A stretch of DNA of 64,000 nucleotides, from UHGV virus genome UHGV-1366123. One strand, 5' to 3'. This document shows, one piece after another, positions 6,352-52,652 of this stretch (the first letter of the stretch is position 1; each line of letters starts with the position of its first letter). Below the pieces are notes generated by a model. That model was not told where the DNA came from. It did no database searches and worked only from the letters and a program-made list of their open reading frames with translations. The DNA comes from a virus. Position numbers and translations under genes: made by a program.

Positions 6352-7974
6352 ATGACTAAGATAAATGAAGGTCTTCTCAACAGAGTGGTCAATGAACACT
6401 CTTCTAAGTTGAGAAAGCTGTTTAAGGACAGAGGTTATTCTGTCAATGAGTCTCGACTTCGTGATATCGCCCTCATGGCTCACACCAGAAAGATTTACGA
6501 AAGTGCTTCTAATGGTGCTAATGTCCCAGGTCGTGGTGCATTCTCATTCGGATCGGCTACTGAGCGTGGTTCTGCAGAAATGTTCGACAGACTCTTCACG
6601 GTGTTCGTAGACACTGCAGCTACTAACGTTGGTTTCGACCTCCTGCACGTAGCTCCTATGACGAAGAGCAACATCACGATGGTTGTCGCAGAACCAGTTT
6701 ATGCTGGTGGTAAGAAGGAATCTGCAAATGGTAATCACCTGCAGGTCTTCCAGATCAAGGCAAAGACCACGACGAGTGCTGATCCTCTGAAGGTAGGTAC
6801 GAAGTACGAAATCAAGGAAACTGGTGGTGCAACGAAGGTTGCTGAAGCCAAGTTCATCGGCATCCATCAGTACAATGGTAACTTCATCTTCGATCTCGTA
6901 AGTGTTGAAGCCACTCATAAGGACAAGGTTCTTGCAGAAATCCTCGAAAACGCAGAAATCACCTCGGGTAGCGGTAAGTGGGTTCTCAGTGGTAACACTG
7001 TAGACTACGTAAACGGCTTCACGAACTTCATCGCTGGTTTCTCGGGTTCTGGTCTTCAGAACAACGATCCTTTCCACGTTGGTCGTAACAACGGTAAGAC
7101 GCTGTTCAAGCCAATGTCACGTGAAGTTGGTGAAACGCAGGGTGCACGTACTCTTGGTACGAAGATGTGGAACAGAACGTTCTCTGCAGAAACCTTCCAC
7201 GTTGACCTCTCTCTGACGACGGAGCAGATTCAGGATGCTCGCATGGATCACGACTTCGACATGCTTGAATTCTCTGAAGAAATCATGAAGAATGACCTCG
7301 ATCAGTCTATCAATGATCACATTCTTTCTATGATCTTCGCTTCGGGTTGGGATCATCACGTTGCTATCAACAAGCTCTCCAACATCAACCTCAACGCAAA
7401 CTTCGGTACTGGTACTGGTGCAACGCAGGAATTTGTTGGTCTTGATGGTGAACTCAAGCAGATCTCTGGTGCAACCTCTGTTCTCCCTGCTGTTGGTGCA
7501 ATCGCAGAAAACCTTTCCACCCTGCAGAAGAGAATCATCACGAGAATGTTCTTCGCTTCTACGATCATCAAGAATCGTGGTCGTGTAGGTGCAGGTAACA
7601 CCGCTGTTGTCAATGGTACGAACTCTACGGCTATCCGTGACGTTCGTGGTTTTGCTATCGCCCCATTTGAAAACACGCTTCAGACGCAGTCATCCCTCGC
7701 CCACCTCGGTCAGTTCTACGGAATTGATGTCTTCGAAGATGGTCTGATGGATCTGAACGACTGCCGTGTGGCTGTCTTCAACAAGGGTGGTGAAAAGACC
7801 CCAGGTCTCGCATTCTGCCCATACATCCTCGGTGAAAAGGTTGAAACCGTCGCTGAAGGTACGATGGAGAAGAAGTTCAGACTTAAGTCTCGCTACGTTA
7901 TCGCTGAACGTGGTTCTCATCCAGAAGCTCAGTACATGACGTTCGTAGTAGAAGGTAGCGACAAGCTCGTCTAA
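6352..7974 (+). CDS. Major capsid protein (T4 gp23-like, HK97 fold)
   Basis: 540 aa; position after protease/scaffold; extreme codon bias (ggt/cgt/gaa/aac) typical of the most highly expressed late gene; overall gp23-like composition. Confidence 0.7.
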   Translation: MTKINEGLLNRVVNEHSSKLRKLFKDRGYSVNESRLRDIALMAHTRKIYESASNGANVPGRGAFSFGSATERGSAEMFDRLFTVFVDTAATNVGFDLLHVAPMTKSNITMVVAEPVYAGGKKESANGNHLQVFQIKAKTTTSADPLKVGTKYEIKETGGATKVAEAKFIGIHQYNGNFIFDLVSVEATHKDKVLAEILENAEITSGSGKWVLSGNTVDYVNGFTNFIAGFSGSGLQNNDPFHVGRNNGKTLFKPMSREVGETQGARTLGTKMWNRTFSAETFHVDLSLTTEQIQDARMDHDFDMLEFSEEIMKNDLDQSINDHILSMIFASGWDHHVAINKLSNINLNANFGTGTGATQEFVGLDGELKQISGATSVLPAVGAIAENLSTLQKRIITRMFFASTIIKNRGRVGAGNTAVVNGTNSTAIRDVRGFAIAPFENTLQTQSSLAHLGQFYGIDVFEDGLMDLNDCRVAVFNKGGEKTPGLAFCPYILGEKVETVAEGTMEKKFRLKSRYVIAERGSHPEAQYMTFVVEGSDKLV

Positions 7975-8003
7975 ACGAAGCCACGAAAATACACTCTCCT
8001 TTT

Positions 8004-8046
8004 TTGAGGGGCTGATGAACCATCTTGAGGTTTGTCAGCCCCTCAA
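8004..8046 (+). terminator. Stem-loop terminator after capsid gene (GAGGGGCTGA...TCAGCCCCTC)
   Basis: 10-12-bp GC-rich stem preceded by TTTTTT; weak U-tract downstream. Confidence 0.55.
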
Positions 8047-8105
8047 AGTGTTTCTAAAATATAAGAAACGTGGAGAAAAATGGTAACATCCATTTATGAA
8101 TTAAT

Positions 8106-9875
8106 ATGGCAAAAACTATCTTTAACGGAAACGCAAAGAGTTTTTCAGAGATCAACCAATTCATAGGAAACTTTGATAAATCTGGTGGTCTGCTCTCTGA
8201 ACACACAACAGCAGAAATCCGAGAATGGGTTCACACAGGTTCTTATGTCCTCAACGCCTGCATATCGGGATCAATCCTCAAAGGTGTACCTTCTGGCAGA
8301 ATCATCACAATATCTGGTGATCCAAAGACTGGGAAATCCTTCGTTCTTCTGTCATGTATGGCACAGTTACAAAAGAAGGGTTATTTCTGCATCTACTTCG
8401 ACACCGAGAACGCCACAAGCTATGACAGATTCATAGCACAAGGTGTTGATCCTCAAGGCGTACGTGTGATTGTACCAGAGACTGTGGCAGACATCACTGT
8501 ACAGCTCACACAGCTCACACAATCACTGCTTGACACCAAGAAGGAATACGAGCAGAAGAACAAGAAGCTTTCCGAAGATGAAAAGCTCGAAATCCCAAAG
8601 GTTGCAGTTTTCATCGATTCACTTTCTGCACTGAACTCATCGAAGCAATTCTCCGATGCTCTAAGTGGTGAAATGAAGCAGGACATGGGGACAGTAGCCA
8701 AGGAAATCAAGCTTCTGTTCAACATGATCACACCTCGTCTTGGGAAGCTCGACATCCCAATGCTCTGTACTGCACATGAATACGAAGCCGATCAAGGGTA
8801 TCAGAAAGTTCGTGTAACAAGCGGTGGTAAAGGGATCACTTACATGGCATCTGTTCTTGTATCTCTTCGTAAGAAGTTCGACCGAGATGAAAACAAGCAG
8901 AAGATGGGTGTCATTGTAACGGCAGGGATCAACGAATCTCGATTCTCGATTCACAGACCAGTAGAGTTTTACATCTCCTTCACAAAGGGGCTTAATGCTT
9001 ACATGGGTTTGCAGGAATTCGTATCATGGAACATCTGTGGGATCGATCGAGGGAGAATGGTGGCGTATATCGACACTGCATCAGAGATATCGAAGAAGAT
9101 CGGTCTTGACAAAACGAAGACTTACTCGACGAAGGAAATAGAACGAGAACTTGCACAGGCAAAGAAGCAAACGTTCTATCAATCTCTGTCATACGACCTC
9201 TACAATGGTCATATTCGAATTGTATCGTCAGATAACACGATCGTACTGCCCGACCTCGTACGTATGATGGAGCAAGATGGGTTTGACTTCACAGAAGATC
9301 TCGAAACAAAGACGATCAAGGACAAACTGATCGTGCACGGCATCTATTCTGATGAAGCAATGGCGAAGATGATCTCGAGCTATATCGACAGCGGTGATGC
9401 TTATATGGTCGGGAATGTGAAACTCGACGTTGCAAAGAATCAGAAACTCAAGTTCAAGAAGTCGATCATCCAGTCGATAAATGATAATTCTTACGAGGAA
9501 AGACTCGTGGAAGTCGAATCTGAACAGACGCAGGAAATCAACGAAAAGAAGGATCAGAAATTCGTATTCACCGAGAAGTTCTTCACAGAAAGATTCGAAG
9601 ATGGAAAGCTTATCCCATCGTCTGTCGAGAAGGTCTGTTTCCCCACACCTACTGGGACTGAATGGGTAGTCCGACATCTCAACAAGTCCTTCAAGAATCT
9701 GGAAATCTTCAACAAACATGTCTTCACTGACGAAATCTTGAAAACGCTTGATGAGAAGGTCATGATTCCTCTGTTCTCTTACAGAGATAAAGAATATGAG
9801 GACATGGACGGTGATCTTTCAAACACCGATATTGAAGAACTTTCCGAAATGGACAAGATTATGAGCGGATTATGA
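8106..9875 (+). CDS. RecA-family recombinase (T4 UvsX-like) with ~200-aa C-terminal extension
   Basis: Walker A GDPKTGKS, Walker B VAVFIDSLSAL, RecA-core order as in UvsX; 589 aa against ~390 aa for UvsX. Confidence 0.7.
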   Translation: MAKTIFNGNAKSFSEINQFIGNFDKSGGLLSEHTTAEIREWVHTGSYVLNACISGSILKGVPSGRIITISGDPKTGKSFVLLSCMAQLQKKGYFCIYFDTENATSYDRFIAQGVDPQGVRVIVPETVADITVQLTQLTQSLLDTKKEYEQKNKKLSEDEKLEIPKVAVFIDSLSALNSSKQFSDALSGEMKQDMGTVAKEIKLLFNMITPRLGKLDIPMLCTAHEYEADQGYQKVRVTSGGKGITYMASVLVSLRKKFDRDENKQKMGVIVTAGINESRFSIHRPVEFYISFTKGLNAYMGLQEFVSWNICGIDRGRMVAYIDTASEISKKIGLDKTKTYSTKEIERELAQAKKQTFYQSLSYDLYNGHIRIVSSDNTIVLPDLVRMMEQDGFDFTEDLETKTIKDKLIVHGIYSDEAMAKMISSYIDSGDAYMVGNVKLDVAKNQKLKFKKSIIQSINDNSYEERLVEVESEQTQEINEKKDQKFVFTEKFFTERFEDGKLIPSSVEKVCFPTPTGTEWVVRHLNKSFKNLEIFNKHVFTDEILKTLDEKVMIPLFSYRDKEYEDMDGDLSNTDIEELSEMDKIMSGL

Positions 9876-17563: not shown

Positions 17564-17708
17564 CAACAACAAAAAGTGGTATCACATACGATGTTGTCCC
17601 TCATTGATTCGAACAAAGACTAACAGAGCCAAGGTCTGTTGTGCTACCATTACACCAAAGGACAATTCGAATGTCCCTCCGCCGTCTACTACGTTCAAGG
17701 GACTGATG

Positions 17709-17783
17709 GGTGATGGATGGGACTTGAACCCACAACCAATAGAACCACAACCTATTGCTCTAACCAATTTGAGCTACCATCAC
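17709..17783 (-). tRNA. tRNA-His (anticodon GTG)
   Basis: Hand fold: acceptor GTGATGG/CCATCAC, D stem GCTC/GAGC, anticodon stem ATAGG/TCTAT, loop TTGTGGT, T arm GTGGG-TTCAAGT-CCCAT. Confidence 0.7.
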
Positions 17784-17871
17784 AGACGTAGTGAGAGGTT
17801 TCGCTCCTCTGAATATCTTCATCAAGAAGCACTACGTTTGATAAAAAGGTGGCGAGTTGTCCATACTCTTC

Positions 17872-17944
17872 TCAGTCTGGTAGGATTCGAACCTACATCA
17901 TCTAAGAACCACCTTATAGGAATTTCCGATTATTCTACAGACTG
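17872..17944 (-). tRNA. tRNA-like sequence with canonical acceptor, D and T arms but a non-canonical anticodon arm (probable pseudo-tRNA)
   Basis: T arm GTAGG-TTCGAAT-CCTAC, acceptor CAGTCTG/CAGACTG, D stem GAAT/ATTC; no 5-bp stem with 7-nt loop can be drawn in the anticodon region. Confidence 0.4.
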
Positions 17945-18310
17945 AACAACAAACGATAATGAAGATTCAAAATGCTGAATATCTGCAAATCGGAAACTAT
18001 GATTGATTCATCTTTTAGACAGCTATGGACAATACCGAATGGGGTATCAAACCAGTAACTTGAAGATTTTTATAGATTGCTGTAAGTCCATAATCTAAAA
18101 GACGTTTTTTCTATCTTTTTCGTCGAAATCTTTACTGCAGACGTTATCTATGAGCCAATTATGAAGATTCTGTTTGCTGTGTGTCTACAGATCCCGACAT
18201 TAAGAATTCTTTAAAAGAACGCTTTGTGAATGATGACTTCCCAGTGGACTACGTAGTTTTAGGAGCAATTGCATAGTAATTTGCTGTGAATCCAATAGAT
18301 CATCATTTTG

Positions 18311-18395
18311 AGGAAGAACAGGGATTCGAACCCTGGGAACCTTGCAGTTCAACGGTTTTCAAGACCGTCGCAATCGACCACTCTGCCACTCTTCC
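18311..18395 (-). tRNA. tRNA-Ser (anticodon TGA), class II with long variable arm
   Basis: Hand fold: acceptor GGAAGAG/TTCTTCC, anticodon stem ACGGT/ACCGT, loop CTTGAAA, long variable arm, T arm AGGG-TTCGAAT-CCCT. Confidence 0.7.
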
Positions 18396-18740
18396 AATAT
18401 TGAGAAAACGATGGAAATCAGACTTACACTATAATCCCGAAACGTCACGATCTCGATCATCCAACCCCGTGGAAATCAGTACCACTTAGAGATTTAGCTT
18501 TAGAAAGTTGGACGACTTTCATCGATTTTCTCAAGCACCTTTTTTGTTGACAACCAGCAACTTAGGAGATAACACCCATTAGAGCAATGACCTTCCCATA
18601 TTCATAGGTCTTCTCTGGATAGAGTTGATGTTCAATATTGCGATGCCTTCTCAAAATCCCAACCCTATGAAAGACTTCTCAAAGACAACCGTTGTATATC
18701 GTTTCAAACGGTACTAAGTCGCTTTTTCTTTTTATTTTTG

Positions 18741-18810
18741 CGAAGAGAAGAGGGATCGAACCTCTCTGATCTTTATGGCTAGATCATCAGACCTTTTTCT
18801 GAATCTCTTC
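18741..18810 (-). tRNA. Atypical tRNA-like: canonical acceptor, D and T arms but an 8-nt anticodon loop AGCCATAA (contains CAU) on a 6-bp stem and a 1-nt variable region
   Basis: Acceptor GAAGAGA/TCTCTTC, T arm AGAGG-TTCGATC-CCTCT; anticodon arm TGATCT-AGCCATAA-AGATCA. Confidence 0.4.
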
Positions 18811-18853
18811 ATAAGTCTTATTATTTGATCTTCTTATCGGTTTCGTTTCTTTT

Positions 18854-19321
18854 TTATGTCCGTACAATATAAGCATCATAACCATACTGCAAACCATCAA
18901 AATAAGAGCTTATGTATTCATAACAACCTCGTAATGTTAGATATGCGTAATAGTCTGATCTTGAATTGTAGTTGCCATTTTGATAGCTATAACAAGCATT
19001 GGAGAAGTTGCTTATAAGCCGTTCCAATTTGGCAATGGTTTCATCAACCTCTTCAGACGACTTCCAACGTAAGTGACTTAGTTTCACTCCTATAATGAAA
19101 TCATCGATTTCTCGTTGATTTCTTTTTATCGTGAGCTTAAACTCATAGGGGCTGTCATAAGGATCGTCTTTGATATGTTCACGTGTCTTTGTTGTTGTTA
19201 TTTCAACTTCAAACATCGGTTCTCCATCGTAATATATCGTCTGTACAGATTGGAATATCTTGATGTTTGTCTTGTACACACCTCTATCAAGACCTTCATA
19301 AAACTCTGTAGGGCTAATCAT
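18854..19321 (-). CDS. hypothetical protein
   Basis: ORF only; Tyr-rich C-terminus. Confidence 0.45.
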   Translation of the reverse strand: MISPTEFYEGLDRGVYKTNIKIFQSVQTIYYDGEPMFEVEITTTKTREHIKDDPYDSPYEFKLTIKRNQREIDDFIIGVKLSHLRWKSSEEVDETIAKLERLISNFSNACYSYQNGNYNSRSDYYAYLTLRGCYEYISSYFDGLQYGYDAYIVRT

Positions 19322-19340
19322 TGATCTCTGTTTGATCAGT

Positions 19341-20294
19341 TCATTTAGTCGTAGTTTGTTTCTTCTTGATGATCATTCTAAAATAAGTCTGCTCGCCATT
19401 CACAGACAAATATTTCCCGTCGTTTCCCCTTCTGGATGTCACAATCTCAAATTGTTGAGGATTGAATTTATACAAGAATGTTATCGGAACCCCCATGCAA
19501 CCATTGTAATCTCGTGGTATATCCTTGACCCTATCGACATTTATACCATCATAATTGTCGTATTTGGGATATTCATGTTCGTGTCCATAGTAGTTTTTTG
19601 TAAGCGGAATATCTTCATGTCGCATAGAGTGGTTCAAATTCGTAAACCACAGACAATTATTGGTGGGCGTGATCATATTACCAGATTCGTCCATCCATGT
19701 TTTTTTCATGTAGGGTTCATAATGGGCTGGTATGATAAACCCAGAAAATTCGTTCCCACGATTTACACCAAGCCATGCCTTACCATCTTGAACGGATTTG
19801 AAGATTTCTTTGTTGGTGATAGAATTGATATTCCCAATAATGAGAAAGAGCTTATCGTATCTGATCAGTTGTGTCATATATTCACGGAACAACGAAAATG
19901 GTGGATTTGTAACAACTATGTCAGATTGTTCCAGCAAATCGATACTTTCTTGACTACGAAAGTCGCCATCACCATTGAAGTAAACAACATCAGCTGTCTT
20001 TGGATCTGTATCGACGAGTTCTGTCCCTGTGTATTCAAAGAAAAAACCACGACTGTTTTCCTTATAACAAGATGCAATCACCTTCCGAAGTCCCAATTCT
20101 TTGAAATTGGAAACGAAGTATTTGAAAAAGTTACTCGTCAGAGGATCATCACAATTGCAATACACAACTTTCCCTTTAAAATGGCTTTCATAATGTCGCA
20201 ATTCTCTTTCGATATCAATAAGTTGCGTATAGAACTCGTCGTTCTTTTGCTTTCTAGCATTACGAAGTAACTTGCTGGTTGTTGCCCTTGCCAT
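19341..20294 (-). CDS. N6-adenine DNA methyltransferase, EcoRI-methylase family (orphan)
   Basis: N-terminus MARATTSKLL..KNDEFYTQ..VVYCNCDDP..SNFFKYF..LGL.K.IASCY closely parallels M.EcoRI; motif IV IVVTNPPF present; no restriction enzyme gene adjacent. Confidence 0.8.
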   Translation of the reverse strand: MARATTSKLLRNARKQKNDEFYTQLIDIERELRHYESHFKGKVVYCNCDDPLTSNFFKYFVSNFKELGLRKVIASCYKENSRGFFFEYTGTELVDTDPKTADVVYFNGDGDFRSQESIDLLEQSDIVVTNPPFSLFREYMTQLIRYDKLFLIIGNINSITNKEIFKSVQDGKAWLGVNRGNEFSGFIIPAHYEPYMKKTWMDESGNMITPTNNCLWFTNLNHSMRHEDIPLTKNYYGHEHEYPKYDNYDGINVDRVKDIPRDYNGCMGVPITFLYKFNPQQFEIVTSRRGNDGKYLSVNGEQTYFRMIIKKKQTTTK

Positions 20295-20419
20295 ATTTCC
20301 GTCTTTTAATATAAATCTTCAGAATAGAGAATCGTCTTATCTTTTACATCTTCTATTTGATCAGCTTCTTTAGCTATCTTACAAACTTCATACCTATCAA
20401 CAAATATCACTTTAGAAGT

Positions 20420-20595
20420 GTAGAAGCCTTATCGTATGTGAAAAATCTGCGTTTTATCCAGTTCTCACTTCTTGTTTCAACCTGCCATTACTTTTTAGGA
20501 ACACGAGGTTCGGTCATCCATAAGAGGGCAGTCCGCAAGCGTAAATTCGGTGCTACGAACACCTACTCGATTTTTTATATGTTAGACAGTTTGAA
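20420..20595 (-). ncRNA. Putative TnpB omega-RNA (reRNA) scaffold region at and beyond the 3' end of tnpB
   Basis: Inferred from IS200/IS605 biology; locally GC-rich, structured segment (GGAACACGAGGTTCGGTCATCC...GGTGCTACGAACACC) immediately 3' of the tnpB stop. Confidence 0.35.
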
Positions 20596-21724
20596 GTTTT
20601 CTTTGTCCTTCAATGAGAATGTTCTTCGAAGCGTTTATATCTCTGTCGTGATATTCACCACATTCGGGACAAGTCCAAAACCTATCACCGAGTTTCAAGT
20701 CTTTCTTCTTGTAACCACAACATAAACAAGTCTTTGAACTTGGATAGAACCTATTGATAAGAACAACTCGCTTATCATTCATAAGAGCCTTATATTGCAA
20801 TATCGACTTGAACCGATAAAATCCAGACTCTTGGATAGCATTCGCAAGATAACGATTTCCAAGCATCCCTTTAATATTCAAGTCTTCCATGAACACCACG
20901 TCGTATGATTTGAGGATCTCGTTCACAACTGAGTGGATGTAGTTCTCTTTCTTGTTCGTTATATTCGCAATCACTTTTGCAAGTCTGATTCTCTGTTTGT
21001 TCCTATTGTTTGAACCTTTGACCTTTCTGGATAGTTGACGATGAAGTCTTGTGATCTTCTTTTCCTCCTTCTTGAAGAAGTGTTTGTTTTCAAACACAAA
21101 TCCATCAGAGGTTATGACGAAATCTTTCACACCAAGATCAATACCGACTTGCTTGTTGGTCTTTTCAAACTTTACAAATTCTGCTTCGGGAATGTCGATA
21201 AGGATTGATAAGAAGAAATTCCCACTCTTGGTTTTCGAGAGAGTTGCACTTCTTATGTTATCTTTGTACTTCTGTAAGCGTTTGTGATACAAGTCAGAAC
21301 AACGGAATCTGAGTTTTTGAAGAGAAGTGATTAGTGTTATATGTTTCGTTTCGAAAGTGTTCCTCTTTGAAATAGCATTACGAGGAAACAATGCTGATTG
21401 TTTGTCTTTCTTTGATTTAAACTTTGGAAAGCCTTTATGATGATTGAAGAAGTTTTGATAAGCACCGACCATCTGTTTGATTGCTTGGTTCATCACCTTT
21501 GTGTTCTGTTCTCTCAACCAAGCATATTGTTCATCTTTCAACAATGATCCGTGGAAATATTTCGATAGATCGCTTTCGCTTAGGTTTGTCTTGTCCGTTT
21601 CATAAGCCTTTTGTTTTCTATCGAGCATGTGATTATAGACAAAACGATAAGCACCAAGAACCTTGTTGAGTTCTTGTTCCTGCGCTTTGTTTGGATATAA
21701 CCTTATTTTAATCGCTCTAAACAT
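20582..21724 (-). mobile_element. tnpB: TnpB (IS200/IS605 OrfB-family RNA-guided nuclease), intact, no tnpA present
   Basis: N-terminal IRLYPNKAQ..YRFVYNH; RuvC-I GIDLGVKD, RuvC-II FMEDLNIKGM, zinc finger CLCCG...CPECG, RuvC-III DRDINASKNIL; all catalytic residues present. Confidence 0.8.
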
Positions 21725-21743
21725 GCCTATGATTGATTATCCA

Positions 21744-21968
21744 TTACAGATCTTTTTCTTCTGCTAATATCCTATCGAATTCCAATCTCAGACAGCGAAG
21801 ATAGCCGTTCATGTATTCATACTTAGTCTGCTGGAAGAACTTCTCATCTGGTGTCAACTTCTCAAACTCTAAAGATTGGATGAAATCGAGTTGCTTCAAA
21901 GTGACTTCTTTGAACCTTTCATAGCTCTTTAAAGCTTTCCGTCTCCTCTGTCCAAATTCTTCAAACAT
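21744..21968 (-). CDS. hypothetical protein
   Basis: ORF only. Confidence 0.4.
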   Translation of the reverse strand: MFEEFGQRRRKALKSYERFKEVTLKQLDFIQSLEFEKLTPDEKFFQQTKYEYMNGYLRCLRLEFDRILAEEKDL

Positions 21969-21974
21969 AACCTA

Positions 21975-22187
21975 TTAATCATTAGAGATTTTTGTAACAG
22001 CACCGAACTTCTTCAACTTTTCTGCAAGATCAAGGACATCTTGATCGTTCTCTGATTCATATAGAACTGGTTCATTCTGACGGACAAGTTCCATGGCATA
22101 ACTCAAAGAAATCTTTCGATAATCCATCAAGCACTTTATAACTTGAAGAGGTGCTTGACCTTTGTCTATGAGAATCAGCTTATACAT
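21975..22187 (-). CDS. Ribosomal protein bL12 (L7/L12) C-terminal-domain-like protein, stand-alone 70 aa
   Basis: LILIDKGQAPLQVIKCLMDYRKISLSYAMELVRQNEPVLYESENDQDVLDLAEKLKKFGAVTKI aligns with the bL12 CTD (..[47 protein letters not shown]). Confidence 0.6.
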   Translation of the reverse strand: MYKLILIDKGQAPLQVIKCLMDYRKISLSYAMELVRQNEPVLYESENDQDVLDLAEKLKKFGAVTKISND

Positions 22188-22212
22188 TTTGCTTGTTTTT
22201 ATTTTTAAAAAG

Positions 22213-22279
22213 TGCTTCGTGAAGGATTCGAACCTTCATCAATTCCGTCGAATCGCTCTGGCCATTGAGCTAACGAAGC
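22213..22279 (-). tRNA. Short (67-nt) tRNA-like element: perfect acceptor, D and T arms, anticodon arm collapsed (pseudo-tRNA)
   Basis: Acceptor GCTTCGT/ACGAAGC, D arm GCTC-AATGGCCA-GAGC, T arm GAAGG-TTCGAAT-CCTTC; only 17 nt between D and T arms. Confidence 0.35.
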
Positions 22280-22481
22280 CCTCATAGATTCCCAGTTTTA
22301 ACGGAAACTGTGGCGGACTATGAACCCCTGCGTGAAACCGCACTTGAACTTCAACCAAGATCTGTACGTACTTTAACCCAAGTGATAGGTTTTGAACCCT
22401 AATTGAAGCAGAACTATTCCCATTCTGAGAGGGGACGTTATCAACTTAAAAATTGGTGAAACGTCCTAAAGTCAACATCGG

Positions 22482-22554
22482 TACGCCATGAAGGATTTGA
22501 ACCTTCGACCGCCAAGGTATAAGCTTGGAACTCTAACCACTGAGTTAATGGCGC
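22482..22554 (-). tRNA. tRNA-Ile (anticodon TAT, decodes AUA)
   Basis: Acceptor GCGCCAT/ATGGCGT, D arm ACTC-AGTGGTT-AGAGT, anticodon stem CCAAG/CTTGG, loop CTTATAC, T arm GAAGG-TTCAAAT-CCTTC. Confidence 0.65.
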
Positions 22555-22589
22555 ATTTTCATCTTTCTATTTTCTTATTGATGGATCTT

Positions 22590-23135
22590 TTAGAACGTTT
22601 TACTGTATCCAAAAACGTCGGAAAGATCTCTCAGAGAATCATTCATAAGTATCTCGTGGACATTGTTGTAAACCGTACCAAGAAGATTCGATCCTCTCCA
22701 TTTCGATTTATCAACTATACGAATATCAGTTTCAGAAAGTCCACATCCCCAGATTTTGTCATAAGGACTGGCTTCTACAAACTCATAACCTTCATTAATT
22801 AGTTGTGTGTAGTGATCTCTGATTTTCTTTGAAGATCTTAGTTTCATCAGTACCACAAAGAGCATCACATCATATCTGACAGATGACCAACGACCATCAT
22901 TGTAGTTTCGAACAAGTCTTCCAAGCTCTTTACAAAAACGTGGGTTATCAGAATTCTTGAGGATCTGCATTGCGATATCTTCGTCTCCGAAGTACTTTGC
23001 TTTCAAGAACATGAACAATGATTCACCGCAATGGAAAACAAGACCATTATAGTTGATCTCGGATTTATAGAAGTTGCTGTAAAAATCCGAACCAGTGAAG
23101 AAAGTCACCAATTTATGATCTTTGAAAATCTTCAT
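22590..23135 (-). CDS. NADAR-domain protein (YbiA/DUF1768 family; ADP-ribose N-glycosidase-like)
   Basis: FFTGSDFYSNFY ... GESLFMFLKAKYF ... RWSSVRYDVMLFVVLMKLRS ... LINEGYEFVEASPYDKIWGCG matches YbiA blocks (F-SNF, SEHYFQAQKF, W..V...VM...L..KF, LL.T....LVE.S..D..WG.G). Confidence 0.75.
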   Translation of the reverse strand: MKIFKDHKLVTFFTGSDFYSNFYKSEINYNGLVFHCGESLFMFLKAKYFGDEDIAMQILKNSDNPRFCKELGRLVRNYNDGRWSSVRYDVMLFVVLMKLRSSKKIRDHYTQLINEGYEFVEASPYDKIWGCGLSETDIRIVDKSKWRGSNLLGTVYNNVHEILMNDSLRDLSDVFGYSKTF

Positions 23136-23157
23136 CGTGTCTCTTGTTCTTTTTTTG

Positions 23158-23230
23158 TGATTCCAGTGGGGCTTGAACCCACAACCCCTGCATTAAAAGT
23201 GCAGTGCTCTACCTGTTGAGCTATGAAATC
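23158..23230 (-). tRNA. tRNA-Lys (anticodon TTT)
   Basis: Acceptor GATTTCA/TGGAATC, D arm GCTC-AACAGGTA-GAGC, anticodon stem CTGCA/TGCAG, loop CTTTTAA, T arm GTGGG-TTCAAGC-CCCAC. Confidence 0.7.
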
Positions 23231-37921: not shown

Positions 37922-38383
37922 ATGGCGAAGAAGGTTGTAGAGAACATGCTGTGGTCTACAGAACGTGTAGAGAAGCTCATACAGGAATTCAACGACAAGG
38001 GTGTACTTCCCAAGAAGAATCCGTTTTATAGTGGTGATGTTCGCTTGAGGAAACCACGTATCAACTTCTCATACACAGAGGATGAACTTCTTGAACTTGC
38101 AAAGGTTCAAGATTCTGTCTTGTACTTCTCAGAAAATCTGGCCAAGGTAAAAACTGATGATGGTATCAAGCATATCAAACTGAGACCATATCAGACAAGA
38201 ATCATCCAACAGCTTCAGTATTACAGACACAACGTCATCCTTGCTTCACGTCAGATTGGGAAAAGTAAAGGCTGGGGATCTGTTATAAATGGACTCGAAG
38301 GTGACTTCAAGATTTCTGACCTCTTCCCTCGAACACTCATCAATAGACTAAGATCAAAGCTGTATTCGACGATCTATGGGTAA
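37922..38383 (+). pseudogene. Large terminase (T4 gp17-like) N-terminal fragment, truncated just after the Walker A P-loop
   Basis: SVLYFSENLAKVKTDDGIKHIKLRPYQTRIIQQL..VILASRQIGKS aligns with gp17 (DIVYFAETY...VQLRDYQRDMLKIM..VCNLSRQLGKT); the ORF ends 30 codons later, directly abutting a MITE-like hairpin element. Confidence 0.6.
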
Positions 38384-49641: not shown

Positions 49642-50508
49642 ATGGCAACTCAGATCCTCAACCTCAAGCCCTGCTCCGAACTTCTCGTTCATAACTCATG
49701 CACTAAGCGTGGGCAAGTCCACTCAATCTACAACAATGGAGTCAAGTTCCTCGTAGATGAGAACGCAAACCATACCGAAGAAGACGGATACGTTCAGTTC
49801 ATAGCTTGGTCAGACGACTTCATCTCGTTCAAGCCACGTCAGGCAAACGAGATATATAACGGTCATCAATCTGTGATGACAATCAAGCAGATGGAATTCA
49901 TCTGCAACACGCTCAACAAATTTGATGATGAAGGTGTGGAAATCATCGAGATATCGATCAACTTCGACGAAGATCACCGAAAGAATGAAGATGATCTCAT
50001 CTACGCCCCTAACATGAAAACGTTCGTTCGCTATAGTCTTGATGGTGAAGAATACGATTGTAGTTTCATCAGCGCATATGACAACGACGAAGTTGTCCCT
50101 GCGGTTAGTGATGAACAAGAACAAGAAAAAGAAAAGATAGTTCTTATTAACGAGAAGGTGTCTCGTAGTCGTCGTCGCAAGATGCTCAAGACCAACAGCA
50201 TCAAGTATGGTCTTGCGAGCTATGAGTTCGTAGAAGAACTCACGGAATCCAACGAACCATGTCTCCAGTTCCTCACCGAGAATGAGTGGATCGTTTACAA
50301 GGCAATAGTCAGAGCAATGGAACAACAAATGCGTGATGTCATCCGTGCATCTGACGTTGTCCAAGGTGATCACGCTATCGCTGGGACTATTTCCACCCTA
50401 AATATGAAGGGGTTCGTTCGCTGTCGTGTCGGAGGTGATAAGCATGGGAAAGGATTCATCTCTGCAGTGACAACAAAGAACTATAACGATTTTAGTCTTA
50501 ATCGATGA
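49642..50508 (+). CDS. hypothetical protein (downstream of iteron-promoter cassette B)
   Basis: ORF begins right after the conserved leader. Confidence 0.5.
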   Translation: MATQILNLKPCSELLVHNSCTKRGQVHSIYNNGVKFLVDENANHTEEDGYVQFIAWSDDFISFKPRQANEIYNGHQSVMTIKQMEFICNTLNKFDDEGVEIIEISINFDEDHRKNEDDLIYAPNMKTFVRYSLDGEEYDCSFISAYDNDEVVPAVSDEQEQEKEKIVLINEKVSRSRRRKMLKTNSIKYGLASYEFVEELTESNEPCLQFLTENEWIVYKAIVRAMEQQMRDVIRASDVVQGDHAIAGTISTLNMKGFVRCRVGGDKHGKGFISAVTTKNYNDFSLNR

Positions 50509-51185
50509 GGAAATTTTTAGCATCTCTACTTCTCTACATTTTAGAATCTTTAGAAAGGGTTCTGAAGTTCAGAAATGTCTCCAAAGATGAAACTTTGGAG
50601 ACATTTCTCGTATCTTCCAATTTTCGTGTTCTCTCACACGAATGTAAAAATGACAAATCGGGATGCATGAACAGCAGACTTCACCCACATAACACAAGAC
50701 AGCTTCAGAAAGTTCATAGATGCCAAATGGAGCATCTTTATGAACTCTGGTTTGAAGATGGTAGAAAGACCGTGATATCCAAAGATCATCCACTAATCAC
50801 GGAAACTTACGGAATCTTCACTCTTGAGAAGTTTGGGATATCTTCTTGTTTGTCTTTCTTCAGAAGGAAGATTGATGTTTCTCACAGACACATTTACATC
50901 ATAAACTTAGAAGGTGGTGTTTCAAAGCTCATAAGTGTGGAACGTTCCTACTTCCCACATATGACTTATGATGTCTCGGTGTCGTGTGACAGGCTTTACT
51001 TCTCCGATGGACTTCTGAATCACAATTGTGTAACTTCCGACACAAAGGTGGAAGTAAAAATCAAAGATGAAGAAAGCCACGGATCAGTGCCAATCTTTGA
51101 ACTTTTCTATAGGAATAAAAGGACGAAGACATTTCTCGATCGTTTGATATACTTTCTGTTCCGTCAGAAACAGAAATTTAAATAA
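50505..51185 (+). CDS. Hint/intein-domain-containing protein (mini-intein-like blocks B, F and G)
   Basis: GRKTVISKDHPLITETYG (block B T-x-x-H) and MTYDVSVSCDRLYFSDGLLNHN|C (blocks F/G with terminal His-Asn followed by Cys). Confidence 0.45.
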   Translation: MRKFLASLLLYILESLERVLKFRNVSKDETLETFLVSSNFRVLSHECKNDKSGCMNSRLHPHNTRQLQKVHRCQMEHLYELWFEDGRKTVISKDHPLITETYGIFTLEKFGISSCLSFFRRKIDVSHRHIYIINLEGGVSKLISVERSYFPHMTYDVSVSCDRLYFSDGLLNHNCVTSDTKVEVKIKDEESHGSVPIFELFYRNKRTKTFLDRLIYFLFRQKQKFK

Positions 51186-51203: not shown

Positions 51204-52652
51204 ATGTCTTATACACCTCTTCTTCCACTTCTGAAAAGGGGAACATTCATAACTTTCAAATCGTCTGGTGAAGATGTAAAGACGATTTCATCTGGGAATG
51301 ATGCGAACGGATTTAAGTTTTCAAAGTTTGCACTTCTCAATCTTCCTCCTATCGTTGCATCTAAAACAAACACCTCTCAGAGAAATACGCTTGATGCACG
51401 AAGAATAGAAGGTTTTTACACCTCGGATTATAGTCAGAAGACGCTCCTTATCCATGACCGTGCAAGGAAGATTCTCTCAGAATCTTTCCAGAACTACATC
51501 CTCAACATGGAAAGCATTCTCCTTGAATCTGACACTTATGACCGTGCCACTCTTCGGAATGCATCAGAGAGAATCTTCTTCAAGTGGCTCAAGGAAACTG
51601 GAGCGATCCGCTTTGAAGAACAGCCCGAAGTGTCACAGTTTAAAGCGGATAAAGACAAACGTTTCATCGAGGAAAAATCTGAGATATACGACAAAGTTGT
51701 TCAATACATCGGTGACATTGACATTTCTGTAAGAGAGAACATCGTCGACGGTGATTCATATTCAGAAGCTTATATCAACATTCCTTCTGATCACGGTTCT
51801 ACCCCAGAAGTGATGTTCAGATCAATATCCGATAAGAACTATAACGAACAGACTGTAGTAAGACATCGTGCGCAATCAGAACTGATAAATGGTAGAAGTT
51901 CGAGAGATATAACTGATATGGGACTTTCTGTGGAAGCGGTTTATGACTGTGACACACAACCAGGTACACTGACCTATTCTCAGCAGTGGATGCAAGAGAA
52001 ATCGACGTTGTATCCAAATGGTTACTATACTGATAAAGAGTTCGGAAATGCCACGAATGTAGAAATCACGAGATCATACGCAGATGGTTCTGATCCAGTC
52101 ACTTTCAAAAGATCATCACTTGATGGTATTTCGATCGACTTCGATATCTCTTCATATAAGCAGATCGAAGAATATAACAAGACACATTCTGATAGAATAT
52201 CCACGCTCGGTGATTTTAATACGAAGTCTGGTGCACGAAGCTTTGATTTCAATTGCATCCTCGTCTACTATGACGTAGAAGATTCTTCTGGGGAAACAGT
52301 GACCAATCTTTATGGTGTTCTGTTCCTTGGTGATGTAGTCCCATATAACACGGAATCTGCTGTTCTCTCGACAGTAAGAAAAATAAGACATGATAACGTC
52401 ACATATCAGCAGGGTAATTCGCTGTCATATAAACTGAACTTTAAGACCGATTTCCACTATGGTGACGCAGTTTCTCATCACTCTGTAAATGACGATTCAT
52501 CGAGAATAATGGCGACAATGATGCAAATCATCGACAGATACAACGCACTCTCGTCCAAGTTTGATGAAGCACTCGTGTTGAACAAGAAGCTCATAGAACA
52601 TATTAAGAAAAACGATAGAAAACTCGAAGATGGAAGAAAAATCAATGATTAG
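51204..52652 (+). CDS. hypothetical late structural protein (482 aa)
   Basis: late promoter upstream. Confidence 0.5.
   Translation: MSYTPLLPLLKRGTFITFKSSGEDVKTISSGNDANGFKFSKFALLNLPPIVASKTNTSQRNTLDARRIEGFYTSDYSQKTLLIHDRARKILSESFQNYILNMESILLESDTYDRATLRNASERIFFKWLKETGAIRFEEQPEVSQFKADKDKRFIEEKSEIYDKVVQYIGDIDISVRENIVDGDSYSEAYINIPSDHGSTPEVMFRSISDKNYNEQTVVRHRAQSELINGRSSRDITDMGLSVEAVYDCDTQPGTLTYSQQWMQEKSTLYPNGYYTDKEFGNATNVEITRSYADGSDPVTFKRSSLDGISIDFDISSYKQIEEYNKTHSDRISTLGDFNTKSGARSFDFNCILVYYDVEDSSGETVTNLYGVLFLGDVVPYNTESAVLSTVRKIRHDNVTYQQGNSLSYKLNFKTDFHYGDAVSHHSVNDDSSRIMATMMQIIDRYNALSSKFDEALVLNKKLIEHIKKNDRKLEDGRKIND

Follow-up and report, generated by a model that had tools for sequence, protein, structure and literature searches.

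In the present study, we analysed a 64,000-nucleotide (nt) stretch of the virus genome UHGV-1366123 (hereafter the window) and focused on the plus-strand open reading frame (ORF) at 50505..51185, which encodes a protein of 226 amino acids (aa). Read from the sequence, this protein consists of an N-terminal helix, the C-terminal part of an intein (IntC) ending in His-Asn, a cysteine (Cys175) that opens the N-terminal part of an intein (IntN), and a C-terminal helix; the amount of extein is zero. On the basis of the ORF and its translation, its homologues and the ratio of nonsynonymous to synonymous substitution rates (dN/dS), we propose that the gene encodes a bridge, or adaptor, for a large terminase (TerL) that is split into at least three genes and is rejoined by a relay of two trans-splicing reactions. 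We lean towards this proposal. It is supported by the order of IntC then IntN without extein, the invariant catalytic residues, purifying selection, a TerL break at the insertion point of this very intein (GK/S), and the adjacency or fusion of the pieces in relatives.

The original prediction, which was made from the letters of the window, had described block B and blocks F/G of an intein followed by Cys. We found these signatures and the HN-C junction at the positions given there, and their catalytic residues are invariant in the family. The block B His95 (nt 50787-50789) lies within ..SKDHPLIT, the block F Asp156 is located at 50970-50972, His173-Asn174 at 51021-51026, and Cys175 at 51027-51029. 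The intein signature is real, and the ORF carries a Hint/intein splicing domain with the hallmarks of this fold, including the block B His, the block F Asp, and the terminal His-Asn followed by Cys. The usual block A at the N-terminal end of the same domain and the usual in-frame insertion between host exteins are not found. No block A is present upstream of block B, where the first ~37 positions of the Pfam profile are unmatched, and the Pfam and PDB alignments begin at about intein position 24-38. A block-A-like segment (C175-VTSDTKVEV...) sits downstream, immediately after HN. The earlier description as a mini-intein without endonuclease is right in that there is a Hint/intein domain and no endonuclease, but the domain is not a complete one, its block A lying downstream of HN.

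The match of the single sequence to the Pfam Intein_splicing profile was weak and below threshold (E = 0.0048; 17.1 bits versus a cut-off of 35.8 bits). It pairs residues 67-174 with positions 38-155 of the 155-position profile and ends exactly on His173-Asn174. The intein assignment was confirmed with a family profile of 15 members (22-88% identity), which matched the gp41-1 intein in the PDB with E = 8e-13 and also the DnaX, DnaB, and VidaL inteins, and each of these alignments finished on the terminal HN. The same profile matched CatC of Cat-TerL (E = 7.6e-7; chain residues 4-113 versus profile positions 28-150). In addition, an AlphaFold model computed from the wider family alignment showed one compact body with pLDDT 86 and pTM 0.83; with 9 close homologues as input, the pLDDT was 46. 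A Foldseek search with the model gave 43 PDB matches at E <= 0.001, and the 50 best matches listed were inteins or intein-like Hint domains such as BIL2, with gp41-1 at 2.5e-6 and Cat-TerL at a TMt of 0.70. Furthermore, we carried out a circular-permutation test, in which the C-terminal 31-52 aa were moved before the Hint core. The Intein_splicing score went from 17.1 to 19.4 bits, and the NCBIfam intein models remained below threshold for the permuted sequence. The score barely rose; therefore, the Pfam profile is uninformative for this short IntN.

A guide to the architecture was the huge-phage record LR756500.1 (locus L009), which contains a canonical fractured terminase with three ORFs. 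The first encodes the TerL N-terminus (TerL-N) to ..ARQTGK, followed by an IntN (C-FFHN..LPIFELYY..LSFLDKIKYYLYK..) and a stop. The middle one encodes a Vsr/DUF559-like endonuclease (Pfam match). The third starts with MIKKILKKIILYLIELIEKIQY.., continues with the Hint core, and ends with the C-terminal part of the terminase (TerL-C; ..TICSSIYIAWYVLF). Positions 1-151 of the hidden Markov model (HMM) of the bridge family matched the first 145 aa of this IntC-TerL-C ORF with 90 bits, and positions 165-206 matched the last 45 aa of the TerL-N-IntN ORF with 26 bits. Meanwhile, an HMM built from the TerL-N IntN tails of other phages had one significant match in the six-frame translation of the window, namely residues 176-222 of the bridge protein (E = 2.3e-4). 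The split of the profile between the L009 ORFs and this match of the IntN-only HMM show that the order is IntC then IntN, without any sequence of a host protein. The family profile also matched 13 further IntC-TerL-C ORFs at 70-110 bits.

Based on these comparisons, residues ~60-174 (50682..51026) read as the long IntC of a GOS-TerL/AceL-TerL-type intein, which is atypically split and occupies the Walker-A site in large terminases of T4-like phages. This segment runs from about intein position 24 of the Hint core to the terminal His-Asn, and the Pfam match, the PDB profile, Foldseek, and the invariant catalytic residues agree on it. The IntC is not followed by a TerL C-extein, for which [S/T/C] and then I.[ST].I[FY]..W would be expected; HN leads into C-VTSDTKVEV..PIFELFY.., and a stop comes after 52 aa. 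Residues 175-205 (51027..51119) are the IntN, with Cys175, the block A CVTSDTKVEV, and the strand-helix motif VPIFELFY, as indicated by the IntN-tail HMM, the family profile, and the tail alignment. Cys175 has two roles, at +1 behind the IntC and at position 1 of the IntN that follows.

Both ends of the protein are formed by an amphipathic helix. The N-terminal amphipathic helix (residues 2-21, 50508..50567, KFLASLLLYILESLERVLKF) has a model pLDDT of 87-92, and family profile positions 1-27 match the beginning of the IntC-TerL-C ORF of L009. In two-piece split terminases this helix opens the IntC-TerL-C ORFs, and it is also present in P0059, P0060, and P0062. The C-terminal helix of the model (residues 210-225, 51132..51179, FLDRLIYFLFRQKQKF) has its counterpart at the end of the IntN ORFs in split terminases and aligns with ..LSFLDKIKYYLYK.. 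of L009 and others. We found no homology of the flanks of the Hint core to TerL or another protein family. The view that these flanks, of about 50 and 45 aa, were an unrecognisable extein therefore needs to be revised: a recognisable host protein is indeed absent, but the N-terminal ~59 aa are the conserved helix plus a linker and the C-terminal 52 aa are the IntN. Between the helix and the Hint core, residues 44-61 (50634..50687) form a Cys-containing insert that is confined to the window clade in the family alignment. Its Cys47 and Cys54 are conserved in the clade, a His is nearby, and the pLDDT is <50 for residues 49-59. This insert may bind metal or respond to redox.

We found eight homologues of the ORF with 55-95% identity. 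Seven of the eight are complete (224-234 aa), and the eighth (P0006) is a 160-aa JGI gene call that begins at Met75. These homologues share a neighbourhood consisting of a gp13-like gene, a variable ORF, the bridge gene, a 480-aa ORF, and a ligase gene. A profile search of 1.8 billion representative proteins added ~15 further clusters, mostly ~200-aa proteins of the same layout. Across 15 members with 22-88% identity, the only invariant columns are His95, Asp156, His173, Asn174, Cys175, and Tyr202. DAG97960.1 (= A0A8S5VU62), which is 97% identical to the bridge protein, carries the automatic name 'CatC protein'. In the codon analysis, dN/dS was 0.24 for residues 1-74, 0.08 for residues 75-174, and 0.05 for residues 175-226, values to be read with the saturation of synonymous sites in distant pairs in mind. 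All three parts of the ORF are under purifying selection; therefore, it is a functional gene and not a relic. These ratios, the constant length of the complete homologues, and the conserved synteny contradict the suggestion that the ORF is what remains of a degraded or frameshifted host gene.

The start of the bridge gene overlaps the stop of the preceding ORF (49642-50508) as ATGA, exactly as first described. A frameshift or read-through joining the two had been considered, and the data do not support it: the upstream ORF is variable in the relatives (288, 258, or 196 aa, with an internal acidic stretch lost or gained), it is replaced by an unrelated 114-aa ORF in L001, and it is separated from the bridge gene by 85-92 nt in two relatives. 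ORF 49642-50508 showed no similarity to TerL or to endonucleases and no family match. Because both similarities are absent, we rejected this ORF as a degenerate homing endonuclease and as an N-extein. As a separate observation, the endonuclease gene of locus L142 overlaps the bridge start with its stop in the same way. Read-through into the downstream ORF 51204-52652 was also rejected; the two ORFs share a reading frame in the window, L004, and L002, whereas their frames differ in L001, and the downstream ORF lacks TerL similarity. Of the three options raised originally, a free Hint-domain autoprocessing protein comes closest, but it misses the link with the split terminase.

This link appears 12 kb away from the bridge gene in the window. 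The ORF at 37922-38383 encodes 153 aa, and TerL is cut in it exactly after the Walker-A Lys. Its residues 1-114 (37922..38263, +), identified by tblastn, are the TerL N-extein from the N-terminus of a T4-type large terminase to ..LASRQIGK. Behind them come an IntN-like tail of 39 aa, which begins with Ser (SKGWGSVINGLEGDFKISDLFPRTLINRLRSKLYSTIYG; 38264..38383, +), and a stop. When P0014 (a relative described below) and the TerL of Flavobacterium phage MaF61 were used as tblastn queries, the matches in the window covered TerL residues ~6-113 alone, at 37940-38266. Intact relatives read ..RQIGKS-IVTSIFLAW.. at the same site, and 1350 phage records match the TerL-N of the window, with the annotation terminase large subunit. 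All homologues of ORF 37922-38383 are fragments of 153-161 aa with such a tail. In public records the fragment is named 'DNA packaging protein', and one copy (DAG97907.1) belongs to the dataset of DAG97960.1. The tail aligns with bona fide IntN tails (manual alignment and MAFFT), and its 39 aa and Ser1 resemble the 37-aa Ser1 IntN of GOS-TerL. We propose this tail as the partner (IntN1) of the IntC at 50682-51026. TerL-C was not found in the window by tblastn or by a TerL-C HMM.

In the relatives, the TerL-N-IntN and bridge genes are adjacent, split by a homing-endonuclease gene, or fused in one ORF. The fused state is seen in P0014 (376 aa, 3 contigs), where TerL-N, IntN, helix, IntC, VHN-CVTSDTTVDV..FELFY.., and a helix are encoded by one ORF. 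By synteny this ORF takes the place of TerL-N downstream of SbcCD, helicase, and SLT, and it equals the two ORFs of the window concatenated. In loci L141 and L142, a 187-aa TerL-N-IntN ORF (..RQIGK-QITTTSQINIE..PLFELYY..LLDKIKRSLY..; 9237-9800 in L141 and 770-1333 in L142) is followed by the family member P0012, and this pair follows purA, which is the slot of the intact TerL in MaF61. A Vsr-like endonuclease gene lies between the two genes in L142, and a gene of this kind lies directly upstream of the bridge gene in L029 (Vsr/DUF559-like) and in L144. L029 (1-2597 of ERZ27249621 k141_1234092, with member P0023) has in addition, directly downstream, an ORF with a weak SegE GIY-YIG match and repeated ..GENRTxxQKxxD.. 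units, a pattern suggestive of a gene fractured twice, with distinct endonucleases at the two breaks; this contig stops short of the following ORF. In the 125-kb phage L132, the bridge gene neighbours gp13, and 15 kb separate it from a TerL-N ORF whose IntN is canonical and starts with Cys1 (CLSGDSIITV). No endonuclease homologue was found in the window. Furthermore, the three TerL-N sequences closest to that of the window all come from bridge-carrying phages.

For comparison, we sampled 154 T4-like TerL loci from IMG/VR. TerL was contiguous in 136 of them and in two pieces in 13. A TerL-N ORF with a short tail (an IntN where checked) was directly upstream of IntC-TerL-C in every two-piece locus with enough upstream sequence (11/11). 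The bridge gene was found in none of the 13 two-piece loci.

The proposed relay would use three pieces. Piece 1 (37922-38383) would supply TerL-N to the Walker-A Lys plus the short IntN1 starting with Ser; piece 2 (50505-51185) is the bridge, with a helix, IntC1 ending in His-Asn, Cys175 plus IntN2, and a helix; and piece 3, which is predicted, would be helix-IntC2-TerL-C. IntN1 on TerL-N would dock on IntC1 of the bridge and complete a Hint fold. Trans-splicing with Ser1, Cys+1, and Asn174 would then move TerL-N onto Cys175, giving TerL-N-IntN2. In the next step, Cys175 would serve as residue 1 of the second intein, which would assemble with IntC2-TerL-C and splice, yielding an intact TerL (...RQIGK-(S/T/C)...) with the GK[S/T/C] P-loop restored. 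The two reactions would be possible in either order because each product stays a competent partner. As for the origin, a second intein was likely inserted before Cys1 of a resident intein, giving a tandem as in P0014, and endonuclease-associated breakage followed. All of the chemistry, including the splicing itself, is inferred from the sequences, and so are piece 3 and the orthogonality of the two intein pairs. In support, a Ser1/Cys+1 combination with a 37-aa IntN is the experimentally active configuration of GOS-TerL (PMC11766414), and the pair in the window has this combination.

Several results weigh against the relay. Position 1 of the TerL-N tail in the window is Ser rather than Cys, and the IntN HMMs miss this tail because of its divergence, so its assignment as an IntN rests on position, length, and the P0014 fusion. 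The IntN tail of L141 and L142 begins with Gln (RQIGK-QITTTSQINIE), which provides no residue-1 nucleophile and cannot start class-1 splicing; if these tails splice, a class-2/3-like route is needed. The Gln1 of L141 and the degenerate tail of the window leave room for class-2-like chemistry or non-covalent assembly. Furthermore, both halves of the bridge resemble one intein lineage (L009-like), and AlphaFold gives a single compact body; therefore, the tail of the bridge might dock in cis on its own IntC. Finally, tblastn and HMM searches for the third piece, IntC2-TerL-C, found nothing in the window or in ~20 kb on each side of it in near-identical contigs, which together cover all but ~48 kb of the ~150-kb genome; a GTDB scan for a TerL-C piece returned unrelated contigs of metagenome-assembled genomes. 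As a side observation, BFVD contains A0A8S5VU56 (378 aa), which has a Hint-like region and is named 'Large terminase protein [Ackermannviridae sp.]'; its taxon label is also that of A0A8S5VU62, and the two may share a genome. The entry might combine IntC2 with the remainder of the ATPase domain, or it might be a P0014-like fusion. If it were the missing IntC-TerL piece, this would suggest that TerL is cut into more than three parts.

These results could also be explained in other ways. The bridge gene could be a dispensable passenger, that is, a selfish relic of tandem inteins. In this case the fragments would cross-react, TerL-N-IntN1 would splice directly with IntC2-TerL-C, and reactions with the bridge would do no more than change the IntN or IntC that a fragment carries. 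A single recognisable lineage does include the IntN tails of L141 and L132 as well as the two bridge halves, endonuclease genes beside some copies suggest mobility, and a reaction with the bridge would leave both TerL pieces splice-competent. The gene might be kept active because an inactive copy would trap the TerL pieces. However, a phage should lose a dispensable gene at no cost or even with a gain, but the bridge gene is kept and syntenic, without a nearby endonuclease, across lineages whose synonymous sites are saturated. Moreover, TerL-C is far from TerL-N in the bridge-carrying phages, whereas the halves are adjacent in all two-piece loci with upstream sequence. We therefore think a passenger unlikely. 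A self-contained, circularly permuted Hint domain, in which the C-terminal IntN docks in cis onto the IntC of the same chain, would agree with the confident single compact model (pLDDT 86, pTM 0.83), with the likeness of the two halves to cognate halves of L009-type inteins, and with the order of parts in engineered SICLOPPS constructs, one of which (5ol7) is among the fold matches. The only chemistry possible would then be Asn174 cyclisation and self-cleavage between Asn174 and Cys175, leading to a two-chain complex with a function unrelated to TerL ligation. We judge this quite unlikely, since it gives no role to the fragmented TerL-N with its IntN tail, leaves the P0014 fusion and the gene order of TerL-N, endonuclease, and bridge unexplained, and ends in a spent, self-cleaved intein without an evident selectable function. 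To our knowledge, the zero-residue link between the last and first intein residues is also shorter than any extein cyclised by SICLOPPS, which weighs against cis folding as well.

It might also be supposed that no splicing occurs and that TerL-N and TerL-C are only kept in contact, non-covalently, by a scaffold of intein fragments and terminal helices. Such a scaffold would suit a TerL-N tail that opens with Ser (with Gln in L141) and is degenerate in the window, and it would have a precedent in a phage enzyme that was fragmented by a mobile element and is assembled through interaction domains alone (PMC3045599). However, His95, Asp156, His173, Asn174, and Cys175 are invariant family-wide, which is needless for binding alone; Ser1/Cys+1 is active in GOS-TerL; and a normal P-loop would need covalent supply of the Walker-A Ser/Thr after GK. 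A scaffold is thus a doubtful explanation. As to a mini-intein in a small degraded or frameshifted host gene, the weak Pfam match and the unrecognisable flanks could be read in this way, but block A is missing upstream, the flanks are conserved intein-associated modules and not exteins, the ORF is under purifying selection with conserved length, and the upstream ORF is variable and unrelated. We give this explanation hardly any credit.

The intein family, the split site, and the fractured-gene context of the bridge are already known, and the sole existing label on this gene is the automatic 'CatC protein'. A split intein of terminases with a 122-aa C-part containing all motifs except N1, accompanied by Vsr-like endonucleases, was reported by Dassa et al. 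in 2009 (PMC2677866), and GOS-TerL and AceL-TerL are characterised members of this atypically split type (PMC11766414). The bridge family shares with GOS-TerL, AceL-TerL, and Cat-TerL the host protein and the insertion point (Walker-A GK-S/T, in the homologous loci L009, L066, L087, and others), as well as the split site, with an IntN of 25-40 aa containing block A alone and an IntC of 104-122 aa. The fractured-gene arrangement (PMC2677866) is seen in relatives, where Vsr-like free-standing endonuclease genes lie between the halves. However, the IntC of GOS-TerL, AceL-TerL, and Cat-TerL precedes the TerL C-extein, whereas that of the bridge precedes a second IntN and a stop, with no TerL part; and we found no description of terminal helices like those of the bridge for the characterised fragments. 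P0014 and the contiguous inteins of the TerL P-loop (P0068, P0075) belong to the same intein family at the same TerL site, and the HN-CVTSDT junction of P0014 is identical. The difference is that the first intein of P0014 is contiguous with TerL-N and would splice in cis, whereas the split of its counterpart in the window leaves IntC-IntN as a gene of its own, 12 kb from TerL-N. As another case of abutting intein domains without exteins, the 470-aa P0021 consists of tandem Hint/mini-intein repeats 1-3 residues apart (..VVVHN-SF.., ..LLVHN-KCF.., ..IVTHN-SCF..). In L009, directly 3' of the IntC-TerL-C ORF, positions 7657-8388 weakly resemble TerL in its N-terminal half (E = 3e-11; 23% over 266 aa) and may represent a second terminase-like gene.

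One engineered counterpart is tandem three-segment trans-splicing with two orthogonal split inteins (e.g., PMC12707363). There, as proposed here, a middle piece of IntC-X-IntN takes part in two reactions that join three polypeptides. The bridge differs in being natural and in having a middle extein X of zero length, so one Cys is both +1 of the first intein and residue 1 of the second, and the middle piece would add nothing to the product. SICLOPPS (PDB 5ol7) has the same permuted order of intein halves in one chain. However, its halves are cognate, fold in cis, and cyclise a peptide of several residues, whereas the bridge has nothing to cyclise and its genomic context points to trans partners. 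We found neither an extein-less IntC-IntN gene nor a tandem or three-component trans-splicing relay described in the literature on natural inteins. According to a 2023 preprint (bioRxiv 10.1101/2023.01.30.526203), contiguous and two-piece forms are the only ones known for inteins. From what the sequences suggest, the chances appear balanced that a natural extein-less IntC-IntN protein is required to mature an essential phage enzyme, that two consecutive trans-splicings share one Cys, and that this system is kept in several T4-like phage lineages from the human mouth and elsewhere, with TerL perhaps in more than three pieces. If this is true, the conserved IntC-IntN gene would be a third natural arrangement of inteins, intein invasion could stack at a single site, and an essential DNA-packaging motor would depend on a protein that gives no residue to the product. 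It would also offer naturally evolved, presumably orthogonal pairs of atypical split inteins with short IntN tags for tandem ligation or labelling, which engineers now build by hand. In addition, the position of the gene among neck genes raises the idea that it may gate terminase maturation.

The window comes from a ~150-kb T4-like phage that is known from human oral and other metagenomes, and near-identical contigs of 144-150 kb are present in IMG/VR and ENA. Among GenBank phages there is no close relative and no DNA or protein match to ORF 50505-51185. The genes recognised in the window encode a prohead protease, the major head protein, UvsX, a gp41-type helicase, and SbcCD; a gp13-like neck gene, an NAD-dependent ligase gene, and six tRNAs are also present. 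In the tRNA region (17593-23230), one ARAGORN call (17871-17945) has an undetermined anticodon, and a 380-aa ORF on the minus strand inside the cluster (20582-21724) matches the transposase family phrog_506 (E = 7e-112). Meanwhile, the UvsX-like recombinase (8106-9875, plus strand) has 589 aa, ~200 aa above a typical UvsX/RecA, and this extension is kept in the homologue of L132.

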